64,000 nucleotides of DNA from Clostridia bacterium (GCA_036307105.1 JAXJYD010000026.1:2-64001), one strand, 5' to 3'. Numbered from the stretch's first letter, positions 27,608 to 50,983 are shown. Translations and numbers: made by a program. The notes: generated by a model not told the origin, from the letters alone.

Positions 27608-27815
27608 TAAATATTGAAGAACAATAGTGGGCTAGTATTAATTTTCTATTTTCTTAATATAGAGTTCAGCCCACGTTTAATTGTTAGTGCACGAAAATTT
27701 CTTTGAAATTTTCTGTGCTCTTTAAAATATCAGAAAATTACCTGTTATAGAAGTTCTAAAACAGACAAACCCTGAATATATATAAATAGGCAAGAAATAA
27801 GGGGAGGTATGAATT

Positions 27816-28115
27816 ATGACTATAGAAGAAAGAAAAACAATAAATACGGGAGTAATTCAAAATTCAATTTTAGAAAATAGACAAAAGCTGAGTATTTCAG
27901 GAGTCATTGATGTATTAAGTTTTGATGACCAAGTTGTGATAATTGAAACTGAATTAGGTTTATTAACCGTAAAAGGTGACAATTTACGAATAAACAAATT
28001 AAGTATAGATACATCAGAAGTAATTATAGAAGGAGATATCACTTCTTTAACATATAGTGATAACAAATCTGCTGATAATAATAAAGGCACTTTTTTAGGA
28101 AAATTATTTAGATAA
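27816..28115 (+). CDS. yabP: Sporulation protein YabP
   Basis: LSISGVIDVLSFDDQVVIIETELGLLTVKGDNLRINKL; followed by yabQ. Confidence 0.85.
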   Translation: MTIEERKTINTGVIQNSILENRQKLSISGVIDVLSFDDQVVIIETELGLLTVKGDNLRINKLSIDTSEVIIEGDITSLTYSDNKSADNNKGTFLGKLFR

Positions 28116-28159
28116 TTACTTAAATAAAATATATTTTAATACCTAGGGAGAAAATATAA

Positions 28160-28636
28160 ATGATAAATAATCAAGCACAATTATTTCTTGTTTTCATTAT
28201 AAATGGAATTATAATTGGTATTTTTTTTGACTTTTTTAGAATACTAAGAAAATCCTTTAAAACCAGTGATTTTTCTACATATATAGAGGATTTATTATTT
28301 TGGATATTAACTGGATTTAGTATTTTATTTACATTGTTTAAATATAATAATGGTGAAATAAGATTATATATGTTTCTTGCAATTGCAATTGGCATTTTTC
28401 TTTATATGCTAATATTTAGTTCATATATTATAAAAATAAACGTATCTATTATACTATTATTAAAAAAACTTTTAAAAAAAATAATATATTTTATATTTAT
28501 TCCCATTAAATTTATATTAAAAATAGTCAAAAAGATTATATTCAAACCAGTTTCTTTTATATTTATCAATATAAAATCATTATATACAAATATATTTAAA
28601 TTTAATACAAAAAAAGTTAATAAAATTAAAAATTAA
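28160..28636 (+). CDS. yabQ: Spore cortex biosynthesis protein YabQ
   Basis: Multi-TM protein with an FFDFFRILRK motif, in the conserved yabP-yabQ-divIC order. Confidence 0.75.
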   Translation: MINNQAQLFLVFIINGIIIGIFFDFFRILRKSFKTSDFSTYIEDLLFWILTGFSILFTLFKYNNGEIRLYMFLAIAIGIFLYMLIFSSYIIKINVSIILLLKKLLKKIIYFIFIPIKFILKIVKKIIFKPVSFIFINIKSLYTNIFKFNTKKVNKIKN

Positions 28637-28716
28637 GAAGGATTTTGAAACTAAATGTAGAATTATATAATTATGAGGTCCGTAGGGATATATTCATTTG
28701 AATTGGAGAAAAACTG

Positions 28717-28992
28717 ATGAAGAAAAATAAAAAATTATATAGAAATTTAATAATATTGGGTATTAGTGTGTATTTTATATTCACTATATTTAGCCAACAG
28801 ACCACATTAAGTCAATATACAGAAGATGCAAAGGAATTATCTCAAAAAATAGAATGTGAAAAAGAAAAGAAAGAAGAATTAGCTAAAAAGAAAGATGATG
28901 TAAATTCGTTAGAGTTTATAGAACAAACTGCAAGAGAAAAGTTGGATATGTATTATCCTAATGAAAGAGTATATGTAGATAAAGGAATGTAA
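28717..28992 (+). CDS. divIC: Septum formation initiator (DivIC/FtsB family)
   Basis: N-terminal TM helix plus a coiled coil, with IEQTAREKLDMYYPNE at the C-terminus. Confidence 0.75.
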   Translation: MKKNKKLYRNLIILGISVYFIFTIFSQQTTLSQYTEDAKELSQKIECEKEKKEELAKKKDDVNSLEFIEQTAREKLDMYYPNERVYVDKGM

Positions 28993-29252
28993 CTGTTTTT
29001 TTACATTCTTTTTATTTATGTCTGATACATGGAAAGTGATTTTTTCGTTTAGATTAAAAATCTTTCATTATTTACATACCATTTTGTGTAATTTTTCATA
29101 AAAAATTTGATTTTATTTAAATATATGTTATAATATATATATATATTAAATTCATTAATTAGATATTTTAATACTTTTTATTTTAGATTTATTCTTAAAT
29201 CCCCAAATTAATTTGTAAAAAAAATGATAAAAATATTATAGGAGGTTTGTGT

Positions 29253-30602
29253 ATGTTAGATTTAAATGAAATGACACTAACAGAACTAAAAGAATTAGCA
29301 AAACAAAATAATATAAAAAACATATCAAAATTAAAGAAAGAAGAATTAATTATAGTTTTAAAACAAGTTGTAAAAAATGAAAATAATGATATTAAAGATA
29401 ATAATGTATCTGAAAATATTAAAGTAGAAAGACAATATGATGAAAATGGAAATTCAATTGTTGATTATAAACTAACAAATGATGGAGATTCTATTGTTGA
29501 AGGAATATTAGAAATATTACCAGATGGATATGGTTTTTTAAGAGGAGATAATTTTTTATCAAGTGATAAAGATGTATACATATCTATGGTTCAAATCAGA
29601 AGATTTAGATTAGATACTGGTGATATAGTAAAAGGTATATCTAGATTTAGAGAAGGTGAAAAATTCCCATCTTTAATATTTGTAGGTGAAGTAAATGGAG
29701 AACATCCTGAAAAAGCTATGAAAAGAAAAAGGTTTGATGAATTAACTCCAATTTATCCAACTGAAAGATTAAAATTAGAAACAACTTCAAATGAATATGC
29801 AACAAGAATAATAGATTTGATGTGTCCAATTGGAAAAGGGCAGAGGGGAATGATAGTTGCTCAACCAAAAGTAGGAAAAACTACATTATTAAAGAAAGTT
29901 GCAAATAGTATAAGTGCAAATAATCCAGAGGTAGAATTAATAGTATTATTAATAGACGAAAGACCTGAAGAAGTTACAGACATGAAACGTTCTATTAAAG
30001 GACAAGTAATTCATTCTACTTTTGATGAATTGCCAGAGCATCATGTAAAAGTAGCAGAAATGGTTTTAGAAAGGGCTAAAAGATTAATAGAACATGGAAA
30101 AGACGTTGTTATTTTGTTAGATAGCATTACAAGACTTACTAGAGCATATAACTTAGTTATTCCATCATCTGGAAGAACTTTATCTGGAGGTATTGATCCT
30201 GCTGCATTACATAAACCAAAAAAATTCTTTGGTGCAGCAAGAAATATTGAACATGGTGGAAGTTTAACAATTTTAGCAACAGCATTAATTGATACAGGAA
30301 GTAGAATGGATGATGTTATTTTTGAGGAATTTAAAGGTACAGGTAATATGGAAGTACACTTAGATAGAAAACTATCTGAAAAACGTATTTTCCCAGCTAT
30401 TGATATTAATAAATCTGGAACAAGAAGAGAGGATTTATTATTAACAAAACAAGAAAGAGAAACAGTATTTGCCCTAAGAAAAGCAATGAATAGTATGCCA
30501 GTTGCTGATGTAACAGAACAAGTTATTAGCCAAATGACACAAACAAAAAACAATGAAGAGTTCATAGAAAAAATGGATTTATATTTAAGAAGATTTAAAT
30601 AA
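29253..30602 (+). CDS. rho: Transcription termination factor Rho
   Basis: N-terminal SAP-like [23 protein letters not shown], Walker [29 protein letters not shown] 7 nt before ATG 29253. Confidence 0.95.
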
Positions 30603-30614
30603 AATATTTACCAT

Positions 30615-30655
30615 ACAACCAAGTCACATATTTAAAGTGACTTGGTTGTTCGATT
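30615..30655 (+). terminator. Hairpin terminator after rho
   Basis: 13-bp stem ACAACCAAGTCAC (30615-30627) / GTGACTTGGTTGT (30637-30649). Confidence 0.65.
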
Positions 30656-30776
30656 TTATAAAATCAATATATTGTAAATGTATACATAGATTTGAACACT
30701 GGTATTTTTTAACTTCAAAACGAAATAGGAGAGCAAAGGAATATGGATAAAAAGAAGAATAAAAAGAAATGTATAA

Positions 30777-30806
30777 CATTGCACAAAATAAAAGTTTTCG
30801 TGCGTT
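30777..30806 (+). repeat. dif-like site copy S1 (intact left arm, degenerate right arm)
   Basis: CATTGCACAAAA-TAAAAG-TTTTCGTGCGTT. Preceded by a short version of the conserved GGAGAGCAAAGGAATATGGAT block. Confidence 0.6.
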
Positions 30807-30840
30807 TTTATTGCAAGTTGTTTGAATAATGTGTAATTTG

Positions 30841-30882
30841 TCACAAAAGTCGTTTGACTTTTGTGATTTTTAATGTTACAAT
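30841..30882 (+). promoter_or_regulatory. Promoter overlapped by a perfect 11-bp palindrome
   Basis: TCACAAAAGTC (30841-30851) / GACTTTTGTGA (30856-30866). TTGACT 30854-30859, 17-nt spacer, TACAAT 30877-30882. Confidence 0.55.
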
Positions 30883-30917
30883 ATAAGTGTAATCTAGAAA
30901 CAGAGGAGTGATGTATA

Positions 30918-32220
30918 ATGTATAGAAATCAAATTGAAAAACTTATAGAATGGAAAAATAATAAAAATAAAAAACCATTAATTATAAGAGGTGCTAGGCA
31001 AGTTGGAAAAACATGGCTTATGAAAGAATTTGGAGAAAAATACTATAAAAATTTTGCTTATATAAATTTTGATAGAAATACAAGAATGGAACAACTTTTT
31101 TCTGGTGATATGAATATAGAAAGAATAATACAAGGTTTAAAACTTGAATCTGGAGTTAATATAAATTCAAGTGATACACTAATTATTTTTGACGAAGTTC
31201 AAGAAGTTCCAAATGCATTAACATCTTTAAAATATTTTTATGAAAATGCACCTGAATATAATATTATTTCTGCAGGATCATTACTTCGGAATTGCAATGC
31301 ATAGTGGAACATCATTTCCAGTTGGAAAAGTAGATTTTTTAGATTTATTTCCATTAAATTTCTTTGAATTTCTTAATGCACTTGGTGAAGAAGAGTTGGT
31401 TAAACTCATAAAATCAAATGACTTTGAACTTATAAAAGTATTTTCTGGTAAATTTATAGATTACTTAAAACAATATTTGTATATAGGTGGAATGCCAGAA
31501 GTAGTTAATGCTTTTATTCAAAACAAAGATTATAATGAAGTAAGAGAAATTCAAAATAAATTATTAATTGACTATGAACAAGATTTTTCAAAACATGCTC
31601 CTAATAACATTGTTCCAAGAATTCGTGCTTTATGGAATAATATTCCTACACAGCTTTCAAAAGAAAATAAAAAATTCATTTATGGTTTGGTAAAAGAGGG
31701 GGCAAGAGCTAGAGAATATGAAACAGCTTTAGCATGGCTTATTGATTGTGGCTTGATATATCAAATAAATAGAGTAAATGACTGTAAAATTCCACTTGCT
31801 GCATATCAAGATTTTAACTCATTTAAATTATATTTATTAGACCCAGGATTATTATGTGCTATGGCAAAAATAGATAGTAGTTCAATATTAGAAGGAAATG
31901 ATTTATTAGTAGAATTTAAAGGGTCATTAACAGAACAATTTGTATTAACTGAATTAAAATCCAATACAGATGTACCTATATTTTATTGGTCAGCTGATAA
32001 AGGAATAGCTGAATTAGATTATATTATTCAATTAGGAAAAAATAATATTCCAATAGAAGTAAAATCGAGCGAAAATTTACAAGCTAAAAGTCTAAAAACA
32101 TTTGTAGAAAAATATAACACAAAAATAAATATTAGAACTTCTTTATCTGATTATCGAAAAGAAAAATGGCTAACTAATATTCCTTTATATATAATTGGAA
32201 ATATTAAAAATATTATATAA
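30918..32220 (+). pseudogene. AAA_14/DUF4143-family ATPase, reading frame broken once at CGG 31287-31289
   Basis: GARQVGKTW Walker A. ORF 30918-31304 ends ...SAGSLLRNCNA*. The +1 frame from 31288 gives GIAMHSGTSFPVGKVDFLDLFPLNFFEF, the expected continuation of this family. Confidence 0.8.
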
Positions 32221-32248
32221 TATTTTATAATCTGATAAATATATTAAA

Positions 32249-32540
32249 GATGGTGGGAACATATTTATGGTGTTCAAATATTAGCCATAAGAATTTTAAA
32301 ATTGCAAATTTTTTATTATTTTGTAAAAAACTATAATTTAAATATCTTATAAAAAATATATAATAAAAAATTAAATATAAATGATTAACTTATATAAAAA
32401 AAGCTAATTTAATAAGAAATATGATTTAATTGAATGTTACTTTAATCCATAATAATGATATAGGAGAGCAGGGGTATATGGATCAAAACAATCAAAAAAG
32501 AAATATATAACATTGCACAAAATCAAAGTATCCGTGCGTT
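32249..32540 (+). repeat. Left-array terminus repeat unit plus dif-like site copy S2
   Basis: G-box GATGGTGGGAAC, AAAATTGCAAATTTT palindrome, an A+T-rich tract, a conserved ATAGGAGAGCAGGGGTATATGGAT block, then CATTGCACAAAA-TCAAAG-TATCCGTGCGTT (32511-32540). Confidence 0.65.
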
Positions 32541-32570
32541 CAAATTTATAAAAATAAGCCTAGTAGTTAG

Positions 32571-32671
32571 TTGTAATTATCAGTCTTTTGTTATATAATA
32601 AGGAAACATTCGTAATATTACAATATTACGAACAAGTTAGAAAACCGTAGATTTGTGAAATCTACGGTTTT
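32571..32671 (+). promoter_or_regulatory. Promoter and two-hairpin leader upstream of the recombinase gene
   Basis: TTGTAA 32571-32576, 17-nt spacer, TATAAT 32594-32599. Palindrome TTCGTAATATT/AATATTACGAA (32609-32632). Terminator-like AAAACCGTAGATTT-gtg-AAATCTACGGTTTT (32641-32671). Confidence 0.55.
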
Positions 32672-32714
32672 CGGTTTATAATAGATTCATTCTTATTGAT
32701 TGGAGGAATGAATT

Positions 32715-33677
32715 ATGAACGAAAGTGTTATAAAAACTATAAGTTCAGAAATGAACAGATATTTGAATAATTATCAAATGTCCAAACTAAATGAAGTTCT
32801 TTACAAAAGATTAGATTTAGATGAAGAAGAAATATCTAATGAAGAATACTTAAATAAATTTATTAACTCTAAAAGATTAGAAGGATGTTCAAATTTAACA
32901 TTAAAGAATTATACTATTCATGTTAGTAAGTTATTTAATTATTTAAATAAAGATATTAGAACAATGGATACAGAAGATTTAAGGAATTATCTATCATACT
33001 ATCAAAGTAAAAACAATTGTAATAGTTTAACCATTGATGGAGTTAGAAGATCATTATCAAGTTTCTTTACTTTTTTAGAAGTTGAAGATTATATTGTAAA
33101 AAGTCCTGTAAGACGAATACATAAAATAAAAACAGATATTTTAGTTAAAGAAACATATTCAGATGAAGTATTAGAAAAATTAAGGAATAATTGTAGTAAT
33201 ATCAGAAATCTTGCAATTATAGATTTGTTAGCTTCATCAGGTGTAAGAATAAGTGAACTTGTTAATCTTAATATTGAAGATATTAATTTTGAAGAAAAAT
33301 CATGTGTAGTATTTGGAAAAGGCAAAAAGATGAGAGAGGTTTATTTTGATGGTAAAACTAAGTTACATTTACAAGAATATTTAAATAGTAGAAGAGACTC
33401 AAACAATGCATTGTTTGTAAGTTTATATAAGCCATATGAAAAGTTAAAAAGTCGAGGTATAGAATTAATGCTTCAAAGACTAGGTGAAAAAAATGGGATT
33501 AGTAAAGTTCATCCTCACAAATTCAGGAGAACATTAGCTACTCGTGCAATAGATAAAGGAATGCCAATCGAGCAAGTACAACATTTGCTCGGGCATACAA
33601 AAATAGAAACAACACTTCTTTATGCAATGGTTAATCAAAATAATGTTAAAAATTCGCATAGGAAATATATCTCTTGA
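32715..33677 (+). CDS. Tyrosine recombinase (XerD-like, 320 aa)
   Basis: SAM-like N-terminal domain (NLTLKNYTIHVSKLFNYL). Catalytic ASSGVRISE (R), HPHKFRRTLAT (H-x-x-R), LGHTKIETTLLYA (H..Y). Confidence 0.88.
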   Translation: MNESVIKTISSEMNRYLNNYQMSKLNEVLYKRLDLDEEEISNEEYLNKFINSKRLEGCSNLTLKNYTIHVSKLFNYLNKDIRTMDTEDLRNYLSYYQSKNNCNSLTIDGVRRSLSSFFTFLEVEDYIVKSPVRRIHKIKTDILVKETYSDEVLEKLRNNCSNIRNLAIIDLLASSGVRISELVNLNIEDINFEEKSCVVFGKGKKMREVYFDGKTKLHLQEYLNSRRDSNNALFVSLYKPYEKLKSRGIELMLQRLGEKNGISKVHPHKFRRTLATRAIDKGMPIEQVQHLLGHTKIETTLLYAMVNQNNVKNSHRKYIS

Positions 33678-33979
33678 TATAAATTATACATATAAAATAA
33701 TACAGAAAATGAGTTTAAATAAACAAATGTTTATCTCATTTTTTGTCCTTATAGATTATGAAATCAGTGGAAACAATTAAAGTCCTATCATTAATTTGAA
33801 GAGTAACTGAATTAGTTTTATAATGTGATAAATCAATCACATATTGTTCTAAACCTGTAGAATTGTTATTTCCACCAATATACTTGTAATTACTTTAATT
33901 CCATCAAGTATATCAAAAATATCTTTTCTTGGGACTATCTTTGTGTTATAATGATAGTAATTAAGAAAGGTGGGTAATT

Positions 33980-34420
33980 ATGAGGATAGTAATACAAAGA
34001 GTTGACCAAGCTAGTGTTAATGTAGATAGTAATGTAGTAGGAAAAATAGGCAAAGGATTTGTAGTTTTATTAGGAATTAAGAATACAGATACATATAAAG
34101 ATGCTGATTATTTAGTAAGGAAATTAACAAATTTAAGAGTATTTATGGATGATAAAGATAAAATGAATTTATCTTTATTAGATGTAGAAGGTGAATTATT
34201 AATTATTTCCCAATTTACGTTATATGGCGAATGTAAAAAAAGTGGAAACAGACCGTCGTTTTCAGAAGTAGCAAAGCCTAATATTGCAATACCACTATAT
34301 GAATATTTTATAAATGAATGCAAAAAGGTAATTCCTATAGTTCAAACAGGAACTTTTGGAGCTCATATGAAAGTTGATTTAATAAATGATGGACCTGTTA
34401 CAATTATTATTGATTCATAA
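33980..34420 (+). CDS. dtd: D-aminoacyl-tRNA deacylase
   Basis: MRIVIQRV...SQFTLYG...GNRPSF...GPVTIIIDS. Confidence 0.92.
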   Translation: MRIVIQRVDQASVNVDSNVVGKIGKGFVVLLGIKNTDTYKDADYLVRKLTNLRVFMDDKDKMNLSLLDVEGELLIISQFTLYGECKKSGNRPSFSEVAKPNIAIPLYEYFINECKKVIPIVQTGTFGAHMKVDLINDGPVTIIIDS

Positions 34421-34447
34421 AAAATAGAATTAGGAGGAAATAAAAAA

Positions 34448-35530
34448 ATGGAGTTAAAAATATCGAATTTAATAAAAAATGAAGAATTAAATAATTATGC
34501 AAATGGAAAAAAATTAAATTACAAAACATTAATTGACTGCTCTGATGGAAAAAACCCATATGGATGCTCAAAAAACATATTACAAATTTTAAATAAAATA
34601 AATATGGAAGATATAACTGACTATTCCCATGATAATAAATTTAAAGAAGAAATTGCTAAATATTGGAATATAAAAACTAATAATATAGTTTTATATGATG
34701 GTTCTATTGAAGGATTGTGTGCAGTAAACTTATTATTTAGAACAGCAAATCCAAAATTATTAACCTTTATACCACATTTCCCGGATTTTAGTAATTATTC
34801 TAAAATTATGGGATATGAACACAAAAAAATTTTATTAAATCGTGAGAATAACTATAAATATGATATTGATGAAATGATAAGAAATATTGATGATTTCGTA
34901 AATGTAATTTATATTGATACACCCAATAACCCAACAGGGCAGATATTAAACAAAGTAGAGGCAATTAAGTTAATTGAATATGCGGAGAAAAGAGGGATAG
35001 GAGTAATAATAGATGAAGCATATGGAGATTATGTCGCAAAGGAAGAATCATGTATTGATCTTGTAAATAAATATAACAATTTATTAGTTATAAGAACATT
35101 TTCAAAAGGATTTGGTTTAGCCGGTTTAAGGGCAGGATATGTGATATCTAACGAAAAAGTATGTAGTTATCTTGAAAAAATATCTAGTCCGTATAATATA
35201 TCTTTGATATCAAAAAAATTAGCTATTAGTGCAATCAAAGATATTAAATTTTTAGAAGATTGTATGAAGAAAATAGAAAAGAATAAAATAGAATTATCAA
35301 AAGCAATTCAAGGTAAATTAAGAATGGCAGTTACTCATAAAAGTGCATCTATTTGTTTATTATATTCTGATAATGATATCGATTTATGTCAAAAATTTGC
35401 TGAATATGGAATAAAGGTATATTCAGGGAATTCTTTTGAAGGGCTGGGGAGAAATAGTGTAAGACTTAATTTACCTTGTGAAGAAAAAATGGAAAAATTA
35501 TTAGAGTTGATTAAAAAATTTGAAATATAG
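34448..35530 (+). CDS. Class I/II PLP aminotransferase (HisC/CobD-like)
   Basis: NPNNPTGQ and RTFSKGFGLAGLRAGY (PLP lysine) motifs. Confidence 0.8.
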   Translation: MELKISNLIKNEELNNYANGKKLNYKTLIDCSDGKNPYGCSKNILQILNKINMEDITDYSHDNKFKEEIAKYWNIKTNNIVLYDGSIEGLCAVNLLFRTANPKLLTFIPHFPDFSNYSKIMGYEHKKILLNRENNYKYDIDEMIRNIDDFVNVIYIDTPNNPTGQILNKVEAIKLIEYAEKRGIGVIIDEAYGDYVAKEESCIDLVNKYNNLLVIRTFSKGFGLAGLRAGYVISNEKVCSYLEKISSPYNISLISKKLAISAIKDIKFLEDCMKKIEKNKIELSKAIQGKLRMAVTHKSASICLLYSDNDIDLCQKFAEYGIKVYSGNSFEGLGRNSVRLNLPCEEKMEKLLELIKKFEI

Positions 35531-35556
35531 ACTCACGGAGAAACTACAATTTAACA

Positions 35557-35590
35557 ACTTGTTCGCACTATTTTGATTTTGCGAACAAGT
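35557..35590 (+). repeat. Perfect 10-bp stem hairpin of the modular repeat family
   Basis: ACTTGTTCGC (35557-35566) / GCGAACAAGT (35581-35590) with a 14-nt loop. Confidence 0.6.
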
Positions 35591-35922
35591 GAATAGGGAA
35601 TATAGTAAAATTTGCAATTTATGAGATAAGAACTAAAAATCTTCAAAATTGCAAATTTTTGTTATTTTGAGGAAAATTAAAAATATTAGTAAATTTTATA
35701 AATTTAGAAAAATTATTAGAAAATAAAAATCTAAGAAAAAATAAAATGAAAAAAATTTTGATAAAAAGAAAAACTTAAAAACAAAAATAAATTTAATAAT
35801 TTACAAAAAGATAAACATTTAAAAATTTATAGAAATCTAAGTGAGGGAGGTAAGAAGATACCATATTGATTGACCTAATTTCTTATATATAACATTGCAC
35901 AAAATAAAAGTTTTCGAACATT
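35591..35922 (+). repeat. Left-array terminus repeat unit plus dif-like site copy S3
   Basis: GAATAGGGAAT G-box, AAAATTGCAAATTTT, an A+T-rich tract of about 250 nt, AGTGAGGGAGGTAAGAAGATACCATATTGA block, then CATTGCACAAAA-TAAAAG-TTTTCGAACATT (35893-35922). Confidence 0.7.
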
Positions 35923-35993
35923 AGAATGTTGATATATCAATAATTATACGTTATATAATTAAAATATTGACATCGAAAAAAAACGCAAAACTA

Positions 35994-36105
35994 TTGACAA
36001 ATTCAAAAATATTATGTATAATAAGTAAAGATGTTATGAGATAATTAAATATAAAAATGCAGATATGGAAACCAAGGGAGTATTCTCTTTGATTTCCATT
36101 TTTTA
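35994..36105 (+). promoter_or_regulatory. Consensus promoter followed about 45 nt later by an intrinsic terminator (short RNA or attenuator)
   Basis: TTGACA 35994-35999, 17-nt spacer, TATAAT 36017-36022. Hairpin ATGGAAA...TTTCCAT (36065-36099) plus T6. NUDIX gene RBS follows at about 36160. Confidence 0.5.
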
Positions 36106-36171
36106 TTGTGAAGTTTTATACTGAGTAATCAAAGATTCTTTCTGGTTTCAAATATATTAAAAGGAGGAACA

Positions 36172-36609
36172 ATGAATATGAGTGAAAGACATGTTTCAAA
36201 AATAGTAGTTGATTTACTACTAGAAAGGAGGAATTCGACAACAGGAAAAACAGAAATTCTAATGATGTTAGCAGAGTATTTAGACAATCAATATGATTTA
36301 CCAGGAGGACATTTAGAACCAGGAGAAGATTTATATGATGCAATGATAAGAGAAGCAAAAGAAGAAATAGGAATTACGATTAAAAGAGAAAATATGCAAA
36401 TAGTACATATTTATCACCATTTTAGTAAAGATGTATTAAAATTTGTGTTTAAAGTAGCAAATTACAGTGGTGAAATAAAAAATTTAGAGCCTGAAAAATG
36501 TAAAGAAATAAGATGGATAGACATTAATAATTTGCCAGAAAATACAATTAAGGGTATTAAAAATGAGATAATAAACATTTACAATGATGTATATTACAGT
36601 AAAAATTAA
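36172..36609 (+). CDS. NUDIX hydrolase
   Basis: Nudix box GGHLEPGEDLYDAMIREAKEEIGI. Confidence 0.8.
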   Translation: MNMSERHVSKIVVDLLLERRNSTTGKTEILMMLAEYLDNQYDLPGGHLEPGEDLYDAMIREAKEEIGITIKRENMQIVHIYHHFSKDVLKFVFKVANYSGEIKNLEPEKCKEIRWIDINNLPENTIKGIKNEIINIYNDVYYSKN

Positions 36610-36623
36610 AGGAGGATAATAAA

Positions 36624-36881
36624 ATGATAGATTTACATATACATACTACTTGTTCAGATGGGCAATTAACTGTAGAACAGTTACTAGAAAAAGCAAATAA
36701 TGCAAGACTATCTGTAATTTCATTTTGTGATCACAATGTTCTAGGAGCATATCAAATATTAGATAATATGGATTTAAACAAATATAGAACAAAAATTATA
36801 ACAGGTATAGAATTCGATTTTGTATTTAATCATAAAGACTTTCACATGTTGGGATATGATTTTGAGAAGAATACTGTTTAA
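36624..36881 (+). pseudogene. 3'-truncated PHP-domain phosphoesterase (first ~80 codons only)
   Basis: MIDLHIHTTCSDG...SFCDHNVLGAY aligns with the N-terminus of the full-length PHP protein at 47686-48567, then stops. Confidence 0.7.
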
Positions 36882-37000
36882 AAAATTATACACAGATAGA
36901 AATTCATGAAAGGTAAATTATTATTAATATAATAAAGAGCTAAATATATTAATTTTTGTATATTTAGCTTTTGAACTATTATAAATTGATATATAAGGAA

Positions 37001-37305
37001 ATAGGGGAATAGTAGATAAAAATTTCAAAAAATACAAACTTTTTGGTTTTTTTATAAAAATAAATTTATAAAATCTAAAATAAAAAAATTTATAAATAAA
37101 AATTAATGAAATATAAGGTTTATAAAAAAGTTTAACAAATATATAATTAACGAGATTAAAAATCTAATTTAATAATTAAATATGATTTAATTGGAAACTA
37201 CTTTAAATCCAGCAAAAACAACATAGAAGAGACAGAGGGAAATAGATCAAAAGTAGTATAAAAAGGAATATATAACATTGCACAAAATAAAAGTGTCCGT
37301 GCATT
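37001..37305 (+). repeat. Left-array terminus repeat unit plus dif-like site copy S4
   Basis: ATAGGGGAATAG G-box, an A+T-rich tract, a block shared with 32400-32510, then CATTGCACAAAA-TAAAAG-TGTCCGTGCATT (37276-37305). Confidence 0.65.
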
Positions 37306-37335
37306 CATATTTATACAATTAAAGCTGATAGTTTG

Positions 37336-37364
37336 TTGTAATTATCAGTCTTTTGTTATATAAT
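37336..37364 (+). promoter_or_regulatory. sigmaA-type promoter (same module as 32571-32599)
   Basis: TTGTAA 37336-37341, 17-nt spacer, TATAAT 37359-37364. The surrounding GTTGTAATTATCAGTCTTTTGTTATATAAT is identical to the copy upstream of the recombinase gene. Confidence 0.6.
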
Positions 37365-37439
37365 GAGAAAAATCGTAATATAGTAATATTGCAAATAAGT
37401 TTGATAAAGAAAAATAGTAATTTGAAAGGAGATTAAATT

Positions 37440-38099
37440 ATGGGACTATTTAATAAAAAAGAAGATAGAAAAGAGGGAGAAAAGTCTGAGTTTTATGCTA
37501 CTGGTTGGGATGCAATCGACGAAGAAGCCAAAAGAATATATCCAGGTCAAGATAATCCAAAACATTATGCAGCTTTGATTAAATGGAGATTGGGTGGACC
37601 AGATCCACTTGATGGTATAAGTGTATATGATGGTGGAGATTATTGGCATTTCGTAACTTACGGATTATCAGAACTATATGAAAAAGAAAGCGAAAATAAA
37701 GAGTGGAGTGGTTACGGGATGGAATTTACTTTTAAATTAAAAAAAGACAACTATGTAGATGAAGAACAAGAAATAAAGTGTATTTGTGGAGTATTACAGC
37801 AAATTGCACGAATTACTTTTAAAAATGGTGAAATATTTAATCCATTTGAATATCTATATACAGGACAAACAGTAGGTATTGATTCAAGACAAATTTCAAA
37901 TATAACAGGATTCATAACAATACCAGATACAAAATTCCAAACATTAAATACGAAAAATGGTAGGGTTGATTTTGTTGAATTTATTGGTGCTACAAATAAT
38001 GAATTATTAGCACTTAAAAATAAAGAATTAGATGTAAAAACTTTGTATAGAAAAATAGGCAGTGATGTGACTGATTATAATAGAAAATCAGTTATATAA
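37440..38099 (+). CDS. Suppressor-of-fused (SUFU)-like domain protein
   Basis: YPGQDNPKHYAALIKWRLGGPDPLDGISVYDGGDYWHFVTYGLSELYEKES...GYGMEFTFKL is typical of bacterial SUFU-like proteins. Confidence 0.75.
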   Translation: MGLFNKKEDRKEGEKSEFYATGWDAIDEEAKRIYPGQDNPKHYAALIKWRLGGPDPLDGISVYDGGDYWHFVTYGLSELYEKESENKEWSGYGMEFTFKLKKDNYVDEEQEIKCICGVLQQIARITFKNGEIFNPFEYLYTGQTVGIDSRQISNITGFITIPDTKFQTLNTKNGRVDFVEFIGATNNELLALKNKELDVKTLYRKIGSDVTDYNRKSVI

Positions 38100-38124
38100 A
38101 TTACAAGTTATTGCTGAATTAAAT

Positions 38125-38153
38125 TTGAAAAAAAAGTAGTATTATGCTATAAT
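38125..38153 (+). promoter_or_regulatory. sigmaA-type promoter of the riboswitch-controlled gene
   Basis: TTGAAA 38125-38130, 17-nt spacer, TATAAT 38148-38153. Confidence 0.6.
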
Positions 38154-38164
38154 ATTAGTAGATA

Positions 38165-38250
38165 TGTAAAAAGCAAAATAAACGAAAGTTTATGACGCAA
38201 AGCCAATGGTCTAAAGGTTATATAATAACCCACGATAGCAGGTTGCACAG
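38165..38250 (+). promoter_or_regulatory. c-di-GMP-I (GEMM-I)-like riboswitch
   Basis: GCAAAAT-AAAC-GAAAG-TTTAT-GACGCAAAGCC-AATGG-TCTAAAGG...CC-CAC-GATAGCAGGTTGC follows the GGCAAACC..GAAAG..GACGCAAAGCC..CTAAA..GGTAGC.GGGTTACC order of GEMM-I. The 3' end abuts the GAGGAG RBS. Confidence 0.65.
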
Positions 38251-38266
38251 AAGAGGAGTGGTTGTT

Positions 38267-38935
38267 ATGAATAAAAAGAAAGTATTAAAAATAGTATTAT
38301 TGATTATTTTAGTTATATTAATTGTTTTTATGGTAATAACAATTAGAAGAATGATAATAATTAAAGCCTTAAGTGAAAAAGTATCAAAATATGTAACTGA
38401 TGATAATCATTATGAAAAAATTATAAACAATTCTATTGAAACAGAAACTATTACAGAGTATTATTGTAGAGGAAATAACGCAGTAATGTTTTTGACAACA
38501 ACTACAAAAAATACTGGGGAGAAAAGAAAACTTACTCAATATTTTAAAGGCGACAAATGCAATACTTATATTGAAACGGATAAAGATAAGATTGCAATAT
38601 TGGACTCCAACGGAATTCCAAGTAAATTAACAATATGGGGATTAGATTATAATGATAGTTTATGGAACTTGTTTTATTTAGCAGTAAAAACACCTATAAG
38701 AAGTGTAAAATATAATAATAAAGAATGTTATTTCTTGAATTCACCTATTGCAAGAAATTGCTATATGGAAAAGGATACAGGGTTAATACTTAAAGCAATT
38801 GATGGACAAATAGAAGATGCCAATGGAAATGAAACAGATATAATAGTTGAGTATAATTATGAATTTGGTAATGTTGATGAGAGTATATTTGAAGAGCCAA
38901 ATATTAGCGAGTATAAAGTGCAAGAAAATCAATAA
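38267..38935 (+). CDS. Hypothetical membrane-anchored/exported protein
   Basis: MNKKKVLKIVLLIILVILIVFMVITI signal-anchor. GGAG RBS before ATG 38267. The upstream extension of the tracked ORF overlaps the riboswitch. Confidence 0.6.
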   Translation: MNKKKVLKIVLLIILVILIVFMVITIRRMIIIKALSEKVSKYVTDDNHYEKIINNSIETETITEYYCRGNNAVMFLTTTTKNTGEKRKLTQYFKGDKCNTYIETDKDKIAILDSNGIPSKLTIWGLDYNDSLWNLFYLAVKTPIRSVKYNNKECYFLNSPIARNCYMEKDTGLILKAIDGQIEDANGNETDIIVEYNYEFGNVDESIFEEPNISEYKVQENQ

Positions 38936-38943
38936 TTATTATG

Positions 38944-38973
38944 AGAAGATGATGTAGTAATCATCTTCTTTTT
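38944..38973 (+). terminator. Intrinsic terminator
   Basis: AGAAGATGA (38944-38952) / TCATCTTCT (38961-38969) plus TTTT. Confidence 0.75.
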
Positions 38974-39006
38974 AAAAAGATACAATAGAAATAATTAGTA
39001 GATATT

Positions 39007-39138
39007 CAGAAGGTTTGGATATTCAGAACAAGTAAAATATTCTAACTTGTCAACAATATTTTGGTATTGTTAACAATTATTAGAATGAAAAATTACAAGT
39101 TATTGAGATGTACAGAAATTTTATTTTTACGAACAAAG
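39007..39138 (+). repeat. Modular intergenic hairpin repeat
   Basis: CAGAAGGTTTGGATATTCAGAACAAGT, CAATATTTTGGTATTGTTAACAA and AATTACAAGTTATTGAGATGT modules, collinear with 9597-9735 and 11661-11737. Confidence 0.65.
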
Positions 39139-39160
39139 TAATTAATGAATTAGTAGTTTT

Positions 39161-39473
39161 GGAGGTAGGGGATTAAAACCTTCAAAATTGCAATTTTTTT
39201 GCTATTTTTATAAAAATATGTAGTTTTTGAAATTTCAGAAATTTTTGTAAAAATGAAAAATTTCGAGATTTTTTAAAATTTTGAAAATAATAAAATGTAA
39301 GTAAAAATAAAAATTGGAAATTACAAAATAGAAAAGGAATATAAAATAAAAAGTTGATAAAATAATTTTAAAATGTATAAAATCACAAAAACATAAAAAC
39401 TAAAAAAATTTGGAAATTAAAGTGAGGGAGGTAAGAAGATACCATATTGACTGACATAATTCGTGATATATAA
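39161..39473 (+). repeat. Innermost left-array terminus repeat unit
   Basis: GGAGGTAGGGGATT G-box. Perfect palindrome AAAATTGCAATTTT (39184-39197). An A+T-rich tract of about 220 nt. AGTGAGGGAGGTAAGAAGATACCATATTGACTGAC block. Confidence 0.7.
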
Positions 39474-39503
39474 CATTGCACAAAATCAAAGTTTTGTACA
39501 ATG
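39474..39503. other. Candidate chromosome dimer-resolution (dif-like) core site: 12-6-12 palindrome at the strand-switch point
   Basis: CATTGCACAAAA-TCAAAG-TTTTGTACAATG; the arms are reverse complements with 1 mismatch. Hand alignment of the 11-nt arms to E. coli dif GGTGCGCATAA/TTATGTTAAAT gives 15 of 22 matches. It lies between the last + gene (end 38935) and the first - gene. Confidence 0.5.
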
Positions 39504-40393
39504 AGAGATAGGAGTAAATTATAAAACCATACATATATGGTCCTACCAGCAAAATCTTGCAATTCCTTGCTATTACTAGTATTTAATCTATTTATTCTAA
39601 CAACAAACTATATTACTTTCTTATAAAACTCTCTTAAATTTGATTCTGAAGCCTCATTATTTTTAATTGTTCCTGGTTGGATTTTTTTTCATTATTGTAA
39701 CCACATATTTAAAAAAATTTATATAACTTTAGATTATTTTTATCAAAATTTCACAAATCCCCATATTTCAATATTTTGCTCAATTATTCAAACAACAAGT
39801 TATATGTCTAAAAAATAAAAACGCCTTAAAATCGATTCTCGTGCGTCGCTTTTTTAGCCTTTTTCGAGCATTTTTAATAAATGCCTAAAAATCAGCATTT
39901 TACTAAAAATTATATAATAAACACTAGATTTATAAATTAACATATCTAATCATAAACATATAACTTGTTTGATTAAATATAAAAATGTCTTAAAATCGAT
40001 TTTAGCGTGTTATAATTGCAAAATTATATTATGGATTTGTAATCTAAAATTGTATAATATTTTTATAAGAAAATTTATTAAATTAATTTATTAAATTATA
40101 ATGAAAAATTATTTACAAGCATTATTAACAAATGTTCGTTAATAAAAAATTATATAAAAAATTTAACTTTACACAAAATTTTAATTTTTAAAATTTCTGA
40201 ATCTTAATTACTAATCTTTTTTTACTTTAAATTATTTTAAGTTTAGTTTTATACTTTTAAGAAATTTTTATTTTATATAGAATAAATTTTTTATGTATTT
40301 ATTTTTCTGTTTTAAAATTTATTTTAATATTTTAAATCTCTTTTTTATACTTTTTATACATTTCTAAAAATAGCCTATTCCCCTATTCCCTAC
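39492..40393 (-). repeat. Right-array terminus repeat element B' (arm, 0.69-kb non-coding body, arm, A+T tract, G-box)
   Basis: TTTTGTACAATG at 39492 ... CTTTACACAAAA at 40167-40178, an A+T tract, then CCTATTCCCCTATTCCCTAC at 40374-40393. Internal boxes at 39631, 39821 and 39986. No ORF of 60 aa or more. Confidence 0.7.
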
Positions 40394-40431
40394 TTATTTC
40401 TTTGTATACATGAAAAAATACTATATAGCTT

Positions 40432-40746
40432 TTAAGTTATTCTTTTGCTGTGTTGAACAAAATTATTACTTAATAACTTGCCCAAACTACTTAAATTATC
40501 AATATTATTAGCTTTTGTATTAACTTGTTCAGCTTGTGATACTAAAACTTGTTCATAAGTATACTTTAACATTGATATTTTCTCTTGTTTTTGCTCATCT
40601 GTAGCATCATTACTGTTAAGCCTATATTCAAGATTATAACAATATAATTCTAATGCTCTCAAAATAAGTTCAACTTATCCATCTAATAGATTTAATTCTA
40701 CAGAATGAATTTTATTTTTATCAAATTTTCTTTCATAATCTGCCAT
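40432..40746 (-). pseudogene. Small conserved hypothetical gene with an in-frame TAA (paralogue of 51011-51297)
   Basis: MADYERKFDKNKIHSVELNLLDG*VELILRALELY... The TAA at 40677-40675 corresponds to CAA (Gln) in the paralogue. AAAGGAG RBS at about 40761. Confidence 0.6.
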
Positions 40747-40942
40747 TGTTTTATATCAACTCCTTTTTATAATAAATTATGCACAAAAAACCTCTGCTGT
40801 ATCAATTTGAACATGTCCTAATAATTCTTGAATAGTTCTAATATAGGTAATTTTGGACGCTATAAAAAATAGTATTACATTTTTTTATAATGTAACACTA
40901 TTTTTTATAATGTATCTTATTATCTTTTTAGTTATAATTTTC

Positions 40943-44229: not shown

Positions 44230-44245
44230 AAAAAATAGCCCAGTA

Positions 44246-45270
44246 TCAAAGTTTTGTGCAAATAGGAGTAAGGATACAAAAATAACCAGTATGTATTGCT
44301 ACTACTGGCTTTGCTGCACGTCTATCCTACTAAAATTGCTTATTTTCCTAATTATCTAATTATTATTCTATATTATATATAATTCTTTGTAATCTGCTTT
44401 ATTACTGTGTTTTAACTTACTTTGCTTATTATCTTATTACTATTATATTATTACCTATATTATTTTCCCAAAAACCCAACGTTTTTTATTTTAAAATATA
44501 ATTTTAAATACTTATTCTAATTTGTTTTATTATTTTATTAAACAAGTTATATGTCTTCCATATAAAAGTGCCTTAAAATCGATTTTAGAGTCTCAACCTA
44601 AATAAAGCCTGAAACATCAATATTTTCAGGCAACAAACTATATGGCTAATTTTTAAAAACGCCTTAAAATCGATTCTCGTGCGTCGTTTTTTTAGCAATT
44701 TTTGAGCAAAATCCCAGTTGTTGCAATAATTACAAAGATTTATACAAATCAAAAAAAATCACATATTATTATAATAAATATGTATAAAAATTAAATAATA
44801 ATTTTATAAAAGTGTTTATATAAGAAGATTTCATTAAATATAAAATAAAGTATTTAATATTTAGAGGATTAAGTTTTATTAGTTAATTATAAAAATGTCT
44901 TAAAAACGATTCTCAGAGGTCTAGATTTATAAAAATATAATTAAATACAAAAGTTTTTGTAAAAAATTTCAAAATCAACAAATGTTCGTTTTTTAGATTT
45001 ATTAACCGAACAATTTTAAAATTTAACATTGCACAAATTTAAAATAATAAATTTTGAAATCTAATAAATTAAATCTAAAATTTCTAAAATTCAAAAAATT
45101 TAAAAATTTATAATTTTATTTTTAAAAATATTTTTTAAATTTATTTTTATTAAAAATTTTTTTACTGACTTCTTCCCTTTTATTACTTTTAAAAATTTTT
45201 TAAAACTAAATATTATATTTTTAACAATTTTATTAATTATGAAATACCTCTATTCCCCCCTACTCTACCG
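44246..45270 (-). repeat. Right-array terminus repeat element C
   Basis: TCAAAG-TTTTGTGCAAAT (44246-44263), a 0.8-kb body with boxes at 44568, 44660 and 44896, CATTGCACAAAT (45027-45038), an A+T tract, CTATTCCCCCCTACTCTACCG (45250-45270). Confidence 0.7.
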
Positions 45271-45454
45271 TTTTTTATTAATAAAATAATTATACAATTT
45301 TAAATTTTCGTTCATTTTTACTTTTATCCTCGATATATAAATTATCATAGATATTTTAAGTTGCCGAATATTCTAAATCCACAATTAACATATGTTATTT
45401 ATTTAAATTAATTTGTTTAATATAATATATTCATATATTTTAGGAGGTTTAACT

Positions 45455-46717: not shown

Positions 46718-46793
46718 CCCTTTATCATTATATAGAAGATATTATAAAATAGCAACTGATTCATGTAATACATCTATAAAAAGGTAACTATTA

Positions 46794-47653
46794 TGAAAGT
46801 TTTGTGCAATAAAAGATAGGAACAAATATATAATACTCTAAATATGCCTCTATTCCTATATTTCAGACTATTATTGAAATATGATTTATTCCTTACTTTT
46901 AATCGTTTTATTTCTTACTTATTACTTACTATCTTAAAATAATTACTAAAATACTATCTTTATAATTATCAAATTGTATGTATTTATTTATTATTTTCTT
47001 ATAACAAATTTATATTACTTTAGTAAAAAAACATCTTAAAAGTTATTTGGCACGTTGGCTCAAAATACCCTTATATTATAGTCAACAAAACTATATGGCT
47101 AATTTTTAAAAACGGCTTAAACTCGATTCTCGTGCGTCGTCTTTTTAGCAATTTTTGGGCTAAACTCAAGTTGCTGCAATAATTACAAAAATTTATACAA
47201 ATCAATAAAAATTACATATTATTATAATAAATATGTATAAAAGTTTAAATATAATCTTATAAAAGTGTTTATATAAGAAGATTTCATTAAATGTAAAATA
47301 AAGTATTTAATATTTAGATGATTAGTTTTATTGGTTAATTATAAAAATGTCTTAAAAACGATTTTCAGAGGTCTGAATTTATAAAAATATAATTAATTTA
47401 TAAAATAATTTAAAAAATATTAATATACAAATGTTCGTTTTTTAAATTAATAAACCGAACATTTTAAAATTTAACATTGCACAAAATTTAAAATCGGATT
47501 TTTAATTTAAAATTTTCTGATTTATTTATAAACTTTCAAAATTTTTTATTTTAGATTTTATATTTTAAAAAATCAAATTTTTAAAAATTTATTTTTTTAT
47601 TAATATTTTAAATTCATAATTGTTGAAAAATCCGCTATTCCCCTACTCCACCG
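46794..47653 (-). repeat. Right-array terminus repeat element D
   Basis: TGAAAG-TTTTGTGCAATA (46794-46811), a body collinear with element C (boxes at 47032, 47113, 47348), CATTGCACAAAA (47475-47486), an A+T tract, GCTATTCCCCTACTCCACCG (47634-47653). Confidence 0.7.
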
Positions 47654-47685
47654 TTATTATAAAACTCAAAATTTATATGAATAGA

Positions 47686-48567: not shown

Positions 48568-48577
48568 ATTTTACCTC

Positions 48578-49995: not shown

Positions 49996-50078
49996 AATAC
50001 ACCTCCGACATTTCATATACATATTATAATTCAAATGTATATGAAATGTCAAATGAAATTTAAAATTAAACAAAAAAT

Positions 50079-50107: not shown

Positions 50108-50123
50108 AAAAAATAGCCCAGTA

Positions 50124-50983
50124 TCGATCTTTTGTGTAAATAGAGATAGGATGCAAAAAGAAAATACTTAAATTAAGTACCTCCCTTGCAGATTTTGCTA
50201 TTCCTTGATATAAGCCTATTATAGCTATATTTTATAGACAATAAAACTACATTGCTTTTTAATTAAAACTCCTTAAAATTGATTCTAGAGCTTCATAATT
50301 TTGTATTATTTTTGGTTGGATTTTTTTTCATTATTATAACCTTATAATTTATAAAAAATTATATAACTTTAGATTATTTTTTCAAAAATTCGTAAATCCT
50401 TTCATTTCAGTATTTTGCCTTATTTTTTAGGCAGTAAACTATATGGCTAATTTTTAAAAATGGCTTAAAATCGATTTTCGTGCGTCGTTTTTTAGCCATT
50501 TTTTAGTACTTTTTAAAGATACTAAAAATTAAGCATTTTTGCAAATTTTACATTATAATTATTATATTATATAAATTACACATCAAAGTCTAGACATATA
50601 ACTTGTTGGATTTTATAATAAAATGTCTTAAAAACGATTTTGACGTGTTATAAATATAAATTAATATTATAAATCATAATCTAAATTTATATAATAATTA
50701 TCATTATAAAAAATCTATATTATTAAATTATTTAAAATTATATTTTTAACATAATTAACAAATGTTCGGTTCTTAAAATTATAAATTTAACATTGCACAA
50801 ATTTAAAATTTAATTTTTCAAACTAAAATTTTTATAATTTAAAATTTAAATTATAATTTTATTTTTATTTATAATTTTGTTTCAATTTTATATACTTATC
50901 TTTGATAAGTATAATATATTTAGAATTAAAAGTTTTTAAAATTACAAATATTCTAAAAAAACTGCCTATTCCCCTATTCCCTC
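50124..50983 (-). repeat. Right-array terminus repeat element E
   Basis: TCGATC-TTTTGTGTAAAT (50124-50141), a body collinear with B' (boxes at 50269, 50461, 50624), CATTGCACAAAT (50791-50802), an A+T tract, CCTATTCCCCTATTCCCTC (50965-50983). Confidence 0.7.

Follow-up and report, generated by a model that had tools for sequence, protein, structure and literature searches.

Why does one 12-nt sequence recur five times, always on the same strand, downstream from rho in a clostridial chromosome? The five copies lie in a stretch of 64,000 nucleotides from a Clostridia bacterium (GCA_036307105.1 JAXJYD010000026.1:2-64001), referred to below as the window and numbered from its first nucleotide. The organism is known from metagenome contigs only and belongs to an uncultured lineage of gut Clostridia. 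We found that the last copy is one arm of the chromosomal dif site and that the other four are arms of degenerate sites, each of which marks the outer end of a gene cassette. We think it likely that this array was built by serial site-specific insertion of small circular cassettes into dif, with the recombinase supplied in trans.

dif, its one-armed copies and their variation among strains

The 12-mer CATTGCACAAAA is present, without mismatch and on the + strand, at 30777, 32511, 35893, 37276 and 39474, exactly where an initial annotation of this DNA had placed it. With up to one mismatch allowed, the window contains 12 matches, compared to 0.98 expected, and none of 100 shuffles reached 12. 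All five copies share ATAACATTGCACAAAAT and (A/C)AAAG. The sequence ahead of the arm is ATATATAA at four sites and ATGTATAA at 30777. At 39474-39503 the arm is part of a 12-6-12 inverted repeat, and the second arm, TTTTGTACAATG, is one mismatch away from perfect. The second arms of the other four sites are degenerate (Table 1). The GC skew stays positive as far as 40,000 and is negative after it, with the sign changing between the bins 38001-40000 (+0.185) and 40001-42000 (-0.272). The palindrome at 39474 is at this switch and therefore marks the position of the replication terminus.

We scanned one genome per species with the query TATAACATTGCACAAAATNAA and obtained at least 119 stretches; all counts across species given here are among the matches listed. 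Nearly all of the listed stretches are metagenome-assembled genomes of uncultured gut bacteria named 'Clostridia bacterium' or 'Clostridium sp.' (from human, rabbit, goat, chicken and other sources). An intact dif was present in at least ~80 species loci, with the consensus ATATATAA-CATTGCACAAAA-TCAAAG-TTTTGTGCAAA(A/T)-AGAGATAGGAG, in which the second arm is TTTTGTGCAAAw, and rho was the left neighbor of the site in at least 60 loci. We therefore identify the palindrome at 39474 as the chromosomal dif of an uncultured clade of gut Clostridia. The sites were restricted to the terminus region.

The degenerate sites have a strict polarity. We classed every site in 129 loci according to its conserved arm and the direction in which its asymmetric centre points. 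Both an intact dif and degenerate sites occur in 25 of these loci, and there all of the degenerate sites (37/37) were in direct orientation with the crippled arm toward dif. Sites with a perfect left arm, centre and crippled right arm (L-c-R') were always to the left of dif, and sites with a crippled left arm (L'-c-R) were always to the right. This polarity is predicted if a circle with a one-armed mimic of dif enters dif and later circles enter the dif that is regenerated. Arrays were present in more than 25 species, and the degenerate arms group in families common to several species. Shifting the crippled arms by one register (+1, giving a 7-bp centre of the cer type) gave 5.24 versus 4.98 mean matches per 12 and restored the GTGC core in 17 of 95 sites; the gain was small and we did not use this register.

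Comparisons of strains and related species showed that cassettes are gained, lost and reordered at the sites and are shared between species. Ten contigs of the window's species were found by an exact-sequence look-up of Rho, and six contigs with cassette 4 by a look-up of the SUFU protein. The comparison DNA (numbered with L) came from metagenome assemblies throughout, and the key junctions were repeated in independent samples (L001/L002, L004/L005, L145/L146). L004 matches window 27581-35905 at 99.7% identity, and beyond this, at the position of site 3 in the window, there is an intact dif. The junction reads ...ATATATAACATTGCACAAAAT CAATC TTTTGTGCAAAT AGAGATAGGATGC, so that cassette 2 is directly followed by an intact dif and cassettes 3 and 4 are therefore absent from this strain. 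The best match to the short right flank of the L004 dif is window 50123-50320 (91%), DNA to the right of the third right-hand site (described below). L001 and L002, which come from independent samples, have rho and cassette 1 in common with the window, and starting at the centre of site 2 their sequence is different (TGAAAG TAGTCGCTCGTT). The divergent part contains a cassette with a DNA_alkylation-repair gene, a non-coding unit and an intact dif.

Cassette 4 was found next to different DNA on both sides. Six contigs match it at 98.7-99.9%; two of them end earlier and four reach the end of the cassette. In these four, homology stops at 39495, 4 bases beyond the centre, and is followed by three different degenerate arms and other DNA (L145/L146, L147, L148). 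With the window counted, cassette 4 continues into dif or into one of three degenerate arms. Site 4 and cassette 4 have at least three different upstream neighbors, including cassette 1 in L147 and yet another in L148 and L150. The cassette-1 gene of L147 is 90.3% identical to that of the window, compared to 99.2% for the adjacent cassette 4, and cassettes 1 and 4 therefore have separate histories.

Cassettes 1, 3 and AbiE (the last from the right of dif) also recur in other species, at 88-92% nucleotide identity. Cassette 1 is in L077 (91.5% identical across window 30761-32225), the NUDIX cassette is in L089 (88%), where the NUDIX homologue is preceded by an identical R' arm and AGAATGTTGATATAT, and the AbiE cassette is in L125 (90%). 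Gene identity alone (DUF4143 at 93% between species versus rho at no more than 86.5%) was suggestive only, since rho of those genomes lay outside the stretches retrieved, and we do not use it as an argument for horizontal transfer.

Based on these comparisons, the same cassettes are absent, replaced or reordered among strains, and the junctions are nearly always in the 6-bp centre of a site. The initial annotation had interpreted the array as serial accretion of Xer-exploiting elements beside an intact site and had suggested a search for cassettes present or absent precisely at the arms. L004, L001/L002 and L145-L148 all differ from the window at site centres, and these junctions, together with the 37/37 polarity, bear out that interpretation.

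We propose the following series of events. The cassettes, with the exception of cassette 2, do not have their own recombinase, so the recombinase must act in trans; it would most likely be supplied by the host as an Xer-family enzyme, for which the protein encoded at 58311-59333 is a candidate. Each cassette would carry a dif mimic with a perfect left arm, a 6-bp centre and a crippled right arm. Crossover in the centre would generate a hybrid outer site (chromosomal L and cassette R') and a regenerated inner dif (the L arm of the cassette with its flank, and the chromosomal R arm). The next cassette would enter the regenerated dif, leaving the newest cassette next to dif and the crippled arms facing dif. 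A second class of cassette, with the opposite arm crippled, would build the mirror-image array on the right. The end of each left cassette (a purine box, ATATATAA and the L arm) would be a copy of the functional left half of dif, on which the host would then depend. Within a cassette, a sigma-A-type promoter after the crippled arm would drive the cargo toward dif and an intrinsic terminator would end transcription. The circular intermediates, the order of strand exchange and any role for the A-rich spacer in this scheme are conjectural.

Organization and cargo of the cassettes

The four cassettes of the left array are 1.4-3.4 kb each, with the degenerate sites as their outer scars. Each has, in order, the degenerate arm, a promoter-like site, one to three cargo genes, a terminator, an A-rich spacer, a purine box and the perfect left arm (Table 1). 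We annotated the cargo of all four with Pfam and Rfam searches, and the results agree with the identities first assigned to the four blocks.

Table 1. Sites, cassettes and neighboring features in the window
Feature	Position	Strand	Description
rho	29253..30602	+	Pfam Rho_N, Rho_RNA_bind, ATP-synt_ab; left chromosomal neighbor of dif; ATG start at 29253
rho terminator hairpin	30616-30648		
Site 1, outermost scar	30777..30806	+	L arm CATTGCACAAAA, centre TAAAAG, degenerate arm TTTTCGTGCGTT
Cassette 1	30795..32510	+	Promoter-like site 30854-30882; AAA_14/DUF4143 ATPase; decayed terminator head 32252-32348; A-rich spacer; type-A tail
Head before site 2	32262-32335		-9.1 kcal/mol; z about -0.6; decayed
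Site 2	32511..32540	+	L arm, TCAAAG, degenerate arm TATCCGTGCGTT
Cassette 2	32529..35892	+	Promoter-like site 32571-32599; hairpin 32640-32672; XerA-type tyrosine recombinase 32715-33677; dtd 33980-34420; aminotransferase 34448-35530; hairpin 35557-35590; terminator 35606-35668; spacer; type-B tail
Head before site 3	35606-35680		-15.0 kcal/mol; z -3.2; intact
Site 3	35893..35922	+	L arm, TAAAAG, degenerate arm TTTTCGAACATT
Cassette 3	35911..37275	+	Consensus promoter 35994-36022 (12/12); NUDIX 36172-36609; PHP fragment 36624-36881; decayed terminator head 36992-37077; type-A tail
Head before site 4	36995-37070		-6.8 kcal/mol; z about -0.6; decayed
Site 4	37276..37305	+	L arm, TAAAAG, degenerate arm TGTCCGTGCATT
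Cassette 4	37294..39473	+	Promoter-like site 37336-37364; SUFU-like gene 37440-38099; promoter 38125-38153; c-di-GMP-I riboswitch 38162-38250; 222-aa protein 38267-38935; terminator 38943-38973; terminator head 39148-39237; spacer; type-B tail
Head before dif	39150-39225		-18.3 kcal/mol; z -3.8; intact
Intact dif	39474..39503	+	CATTGCACAAAA-TCAAAG-TTTTGTACAATG; at GC-skew switch
Conserved non-coding right flank of dif	39504..40100		Contains near-invariant block 39792-39860
Right-hand cassette	dif to 44234		P-type ATPase 40943-43579 (-); RhuM fragment
Right site	44234..44263	+	Degenerate arm AATAGCCCAGTA, TCAAAG, R arm TTTTGTGCAAAT
Right-hand cassette	44264-46781		CAAX protease (+); Crp-like gene (-)
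Right site	46782..46811	+	Degenerate arm, TGAAAG, TTTTGTGCAATA
Right-hand cassette	46812-50111		PHP, AbiEii and AbiEi-like gene, all on - strand
Right site	50112..50141	+	AATAGCCCAGTA, TCGATC, TTTTGTGTAAAT
Xer-family tyrosine recombinase, candidate enzyme	58311..59333	+	340 aa

Promoter-like sites follow all four degenerate sites of the left array, as first reported, at 30854 (10/12, with TG), 32571 (10/12), 35994 (12/12) and 37336 (10/12). Such matches were not enriched across the region as a whole (72 found versus 77 expected). They were enriched after the sites: among 96 unique L-c-R' sites, 41% had a match of at least 10/12 within the following 130 nt, compared to 8% in random and 16% in AT-matched windows. 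For matches of at least 11/12 the values were 12.5% versus 1.2% and 2.8%. That is, the enrichment over AT-matched windows was 2.5- to 4.5-fold. The most common form was TTGTAA-17-TATAAT, within a conserved block, TAGTTAGTTGTAATTATCAGnCTTTTGTTATATAAT.

The initial annotation had spoken of five non-coding units and had placed one of 270-330 nt before four of the five sites. Alignment and profile searches located a unit of ~290-330 nt before 32511, 35893, 37276 and 39474. Before 30777 the arm is separated from the rho terminator by only ~130 nt; this short ancestral flank (30649-30776) carries a purine box, ATAGGAGAGCAAAGG. The array thus has four full units and one short flank. A profile of the head of the unit matched at 32252-32348, 35600-35697, 36992-37077 and 39148-39237 in the window, and identified 35 copies in 22 loci, ~100-340 nt (mostly 200-340) upstream of the L arm.

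At the head of the unit is a hairpin with a run of T after it. In 26 distinct heads, its 16-pair stem was 89% paired, compared to no more than 57% in slid registers. Seven pairs had changed on both sides, and 0-7 of 500 shuffles reached the observed measures. The G-U pairs confine the hairpin to the cargo-sense strand, and it is therefore best read as an intrinsic terminator with the G-box as the hairpin loop. The G-box and palindrome noted initially are thus real, and their nature is that of a terminator hairpin. The spacer after the head is 88% A+T, with A at 57% on the + strand, and varies in length; it has no 10-11-bp periodicity of A-tracts, and we rejected intrinsic DNA curvature as its property.

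The tail of the unit exists in two types (A and B), both versions of the purine box (A)TAGGGAGAG. This box is 30-60 nt upstream of dif even in species in which rho adjoins dif and there is no cassette. The conserved block of 30-60 nt recognized in the initial annotation therefore duplicates the DNA that normally flanks dif on the left, and the functional left half of dif is present in full at the end of each left cassette. The long A+T-rich unit itself is dispensable: cassette 1 in L077 and L147 has only a canonical terminator and a short tail, and we rejected the unit as an obligatory part of a cassette.

The array on the right of dif is a mirror image of that on the left, with sites at 44234-44263, 46782-46811 and 50112-50141. 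Read on the minus strand, a right-hand cassette consists of site, promoter, cargo, G-rich box, A-rich spacer, flank copy and arm, the order found in left cassettes. Paralogous copies of the right flank of dif start after each right-hand site (44264-, 46812- and 50142-). A block in this flank is near-invariant in 33-34 species and consists of AGACAACAAACTATATG, ~12 variable nt, AAAAACG(G/C)CTTAAAATCGATTCTCGTGCGTCG and a T run. Further copies are at 39965-40005, 44548-44679, 44875-44915, 47092-47132, 47327-47367, 50248-50288 and 50440-50480, and each right-hand cassette has its own. The motif is also directly upstream of the Xer-like gene in L011 and L094. We found no covariation and no Rfam match for an RNA structure in this block. 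The functional right half of dif varies among strains of one species: it is TCAAAG-TTTTGTACAATG in the window (39474-39503), TCAATC-TTTTGTGCAAAT in L004 (8314-8343) and TCAATC-TTTTGTGCAAAA in L001 (14521-14550). Such variation is expected if right-hand cassettes swap the right half of dif.

We extracted 62 cassettes, which were 0.6-7 kb and contained 1-8 open reading frames (usually 1-4). Transcription is toward dif from both sides: 104 of 114 open reading frames in left cassettes are on the + strand, and 21 of 23 in right cassettes are on the - strand. Among 89 cargo proteins from other species, the most frequent Pfam families were GNAT (6), DUF4143/AAA_14 (5), NUDIX (4) and HAD (3), followed by methyltransferases, AbiEii/AbiEi and class II aminoacyl-tRNA synthetases. 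The 25 most common families of these 89 proteins included none of replication, transfer, recombinase or phage proteins. One cargo protein of another species is a streptomycin adenylyltransferase of the ANT(6) type (PF04439, E = 2e-112), and the arrays can therefore carry antibiotic-resistance genes.

Several individual features are worth recording. The DUF4143 ATPase of cassette 1 is split into two overlapping open reading frames, 30918-31304 (128 aa, AAA_14) and 31240-32220 (326 aa, DUF4143). The split is common to all strains and to other species (L077, and the gene calls of L001-L010); it is either a conserved arrangement, with two genes or a frameshift, or a defect inherited from long ago. 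In cassette 4, the c-di-GMP-I riboswitch (71.9 bits) leads, within a mobile cassette, a 222-aa protein that belongs to no Pfam or NCBIfam family (38162-38935). A homologue of this protein, 33% identical, is near dif in L107 behind a similar leader. Rfam searches of the units and the right flank gave no match. In the window they identified this riboswitch and a SAM riboswitch (3601-3709, 66.4 bits), which is ordinary and unrelated to the array. A 54-nt 'empty cassette', two sites split only by TGTCCGTGCATT-CAAATCTATGAAAAAAATAAATGA, recurs in L151 (3731-3796, reverse strand), L153, L154 and L155; L151 has six sites within ~5.3 kb. To the right of dif in the window are two fragments of the RhuM family (one fused to DUF3846) and a weak open reading frame of the rve-type integrase core (43665-43973, 53017-53541 and 53549-54442). 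These fragments suggest further decayed mobile DNA.

The candidate recombinase and other ways to build the array

The protein encoded at 58311-59333 is likely to be the enzyme that acts on the array, and we treat it as an unproven candidate. It matches the NCBIfam models for XerC (229 bits) and XerD (208 bits), both under the equivalog cut-offs. The nearest solved structures are XerA and XerD, to which it is closer in sequence than to XerH. Orthologues that are 68-85% identical are 0.3-4.5 kb from dif in eight other species. In systems with a single recombinase (the XerS, XerH and XerL type), the enzyme is encoded next to a nearly palindromic dif. The arms of the dif here are near-perfect inverted repeats, and a gene of the 58311 type is 0.3-4.5 kb from dif in 9 loci but absent from many other stretches.

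Xer-like genes are themselves found next to sequences that resemble the site. An arm-like half-site, GATTGCACAAAATTTTTTAAAT, is at 58257-58278, 53 nt upstream of the gene in the window. In the window and in L101, L012 and L072, the gene is preceded at a distance of 53-73 nt by the sequence TTGCACAAAATTTTTwAAAT, and the nearby intergenic DNA has diverged. The half-site may be an autoregulatory binding site. In L093, a complete dif is 70-100 nt upstream of a gene for a 49% homologue.

Some of our observations count against insertion by a host enzyme acting in trans. Among ~35 loci with enough flank, an orthologue of the 58311 protein was near dif in only ~9. The exact pattern of a circle or tandem junction of cassette 4 was absent from JGI metagenome contigs, a weak test given that assemblies rarely catch rare circles. 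One junction, in L144, is upstream of the NUDIX promoter and away from any arm. The promoters and terminators are predictions made from sequence. The crippled arms are not random: 95 unique sites have the consensus T-W-T-Y-C-G-N-N-C-R-T-T (TWTYCGNNCRTT), which could reflect recognition by another factor or common descent. In addition, other recombinases occur at these loci. The recombinase that cassette 2 carries as cargo (32715-33677) scored 243.5 bits against the NCBIfam model 'XerA/integron integrase', for which the cut-off is 220. To the right of dif, some loci have a trio of genes for a small protein (76-110 aa, no Pfam match) and two tandem Xer-like tyrosine recombinases. The trio is 1.2-2.4 kb right of dif in L001 (15479-17838), L002, L039, L050, L052 and L118, and its recombinases are ~39% identical to the 58311 protein. 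The window has only fragments of the small gene (40432-40662 and 51089-51253). The trio may be mobile DNA in its own right or may assist the movement of cassettes.

Could a dedicated cassette integrase, either the XerA-type enzyme of cassette 2 or the small protein with its tandem recombinases, move the cassettes, with dif merely the target? The score of the cassette-2 enzyme, the location of the trio and its remnants near dif, and the shared consensus of the crippled arms would fit, as would an integrase gene beside the dif mimic in a viral contig (L143). We consider this unlikely. The cassette-2 recombinase is present in the window's strain group only, whereas arrays are in more than 25 species, which rules it out as a general array enzyme. 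The window has arrays yet no intact trio. Most arrays do not have a recombinase next to them, and in eight array-rich stretches (L014, L029, L055, L069, L084, L089, L110 and L122) there was no recombinase match at all.

Larger elements also use the site. In IMG/VR, nine viral contigs with a low GC content and lengths of up to 43 kb (L130, L133, L135-L139, L141 and L143) have the perfect arm, the centre and a degenerate arm, with a short hairpin ahead. L130 has genes for Erf, a replication initiator and a ParB-like protein, L143 has its integrase next to the site, and the degenerate arm of L135 is identical to that of a genomic site in L089. These contigs have the same arm as the cassettes, and larger elements therefore also target the site. 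The cassettes might, then, be decayed leftovers of such prophages at dif and not mobile as small units. This seems to us very improbable: cassette 4 is intact at 99% with different neighbors on both sides, the 25 most common families of the 89 cargo proteins include none from phages, and the cassettes have a regular layout of promoter, cargo, terminator and flank.

Finally, we give almost no credence to local duplication with homologous recombination between repeats of the dif flank, or to misassembly: the flank copies (tails and right-hand units) are 75-90% similar and many metagenome contigs break directly after rho, but the junctions are in the 6-bp centre rather than scattered over the longer repeats, the degenerate arm switches along with the cassette that follows it, a strict 37/37 polarity would be unexpected, the repeats are too short and divergent to mislead assemblies at k=141, and the junctions repeat in independent samples.

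We also put forward, tentatively, a broader notion. dif may be a two-sided, integron-like capture platform, at which cargo-only cassettes, equipped with a promoter, a terminator and one complete functional half of dif, are exchanged between strains and species by a housekeeping Xer-type enzyme alone. New cassettes may form when this enzyme recombines dif with a weak pseudo-site beyond the neighboring genes. Such an origin would explain why each cassette has a copy of a dif flank, why the cargo is of an ordinary chromosomal type and why it is transcribed toward dif.

Comparison with known systems

The array works like the accretion of integrative mobile elements exploiting Xer (IMEX), and unlike the pdif modules of Acinetobacter or integrons. 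IMEX include the elements arrayed at dif1 of Vibrio cholerae (TLC-phi, VGJ-phi and CTX-phi), the gonococcal genetic island of Neisseria and LME-1 of Legionella (PMC6744903, PMC9226527, PMC9765430). As with IMEX, the cassettes appear to integrate at the chromosomal dif through a dif mimic, leave a modified outer site and a regenerated dif, and stack serially, and the presence/absence polymorphism is exactly at the site. IMEX have no integrase of their own and are recombined by the host Xer; three of the four left cassettes here likewise encode no recombinase, but cassette 2 does. The attP of TLC-phi has one crippled arm, as do the cassettes here.

There are also differences from IMEX. The cassettes are only 0.6-7 kb and carry cargo without replication, phage or activator genes. 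There are two mirror-image classes and arrays on both sides of dif; the arrays reach six or more sites and are found in many species, all within a Gram-positive clade. A promoter is predicted for each cassette, a terminator is present in many, and the enzyme may be a single Xer-type recombinase. IMEX have a free circular form that is often replicative, whereas the search of metagenome contigs for such a form of cassette 4 was negative, a weak test as noted above.

The dif modules of Acinetobacter form 'module islands' (PMC12907356, PMC11705084). They resemble the cassettes in having small cargo (toxin-antitoxin, resistance and enzyme genes), Xer-type sites, arrays of several modules and no recombinase. 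This likeness, drawn in the initial annotation, fails on orientation. In pdif modules the sites alternate (are inverted), both arms are recognizable, and the modules are mostly plasmid-borne and exchanged between plasmids. In contrast, all of the sites here have the direct orientation and a single crippled arm, and a true dif at the terminus anchors the array. A segment with unit, site and promoter (window 36990-37440) had no match among the plasmids of PLSDB or the phages of INPHARED.

Integrons have a platform of intI, attI and Pc, promoterless cassettes, and attC sites that fold into hairpins. Like an integron, the array here is one-way, with short cassettes at one site and the newest next to the entry site, and the cargo is similar (GNAT, NUDIX, toxin-antitoxin, aminoglycoside adenylyltransferase). 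Unlike an integron, it lacks the platform of intI, attI and Pc, and all recombinases tested scored far under the cut-offs of the integron-integrase models. Its sites mimic dif in their 12-6-12 layout, most cassettes have promoter-like sites, and growth is two-sided. The hairpin, in contrast to that of attC, is a terminator 200-300 nt from the site. The tycheposons of Prochlorococcus use attachment sites in tRNA genes and encode their own tyrosine recombinases. They share with the arrays the tandem cargo elements and remnants at one attachment site and the degenerate half-sites left behind; the system here differs in using dif and in having no element-encoded enzyme.

Full-text searches of the literature found no account of such arrays in Clostridia or of cargo-only dif cassettes, in agreement with the initial annotation, whose author knew of no described equivalent on a clostridial chromosome with such large non-coding units. 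In an older survey of predicted dif sites, prediction failed for two Clostridium species and no such arrays were described (PMC3025954).

If our interpretation is correct, exploitation of Xer would extend from a few phages and islands of Proteobacteria to systematic exchange of cassettes in abundant, uncultured gut Firmicutes. The terminus would be a hotspot of strain-level variation in gene content, with cargo that includes toxin-antitoxin, NUDIX, GNAT and aminoglycoside adenylyltransferase genes and a gene controlled by c-di-GMP. The arrays would also provide a natural experiment on how dif tolerates repeated replacement of one of its halves, and an integration site, compact and defined by its sequence, that comes with promoter and terminator parts and might be of use for engineering these organisms.

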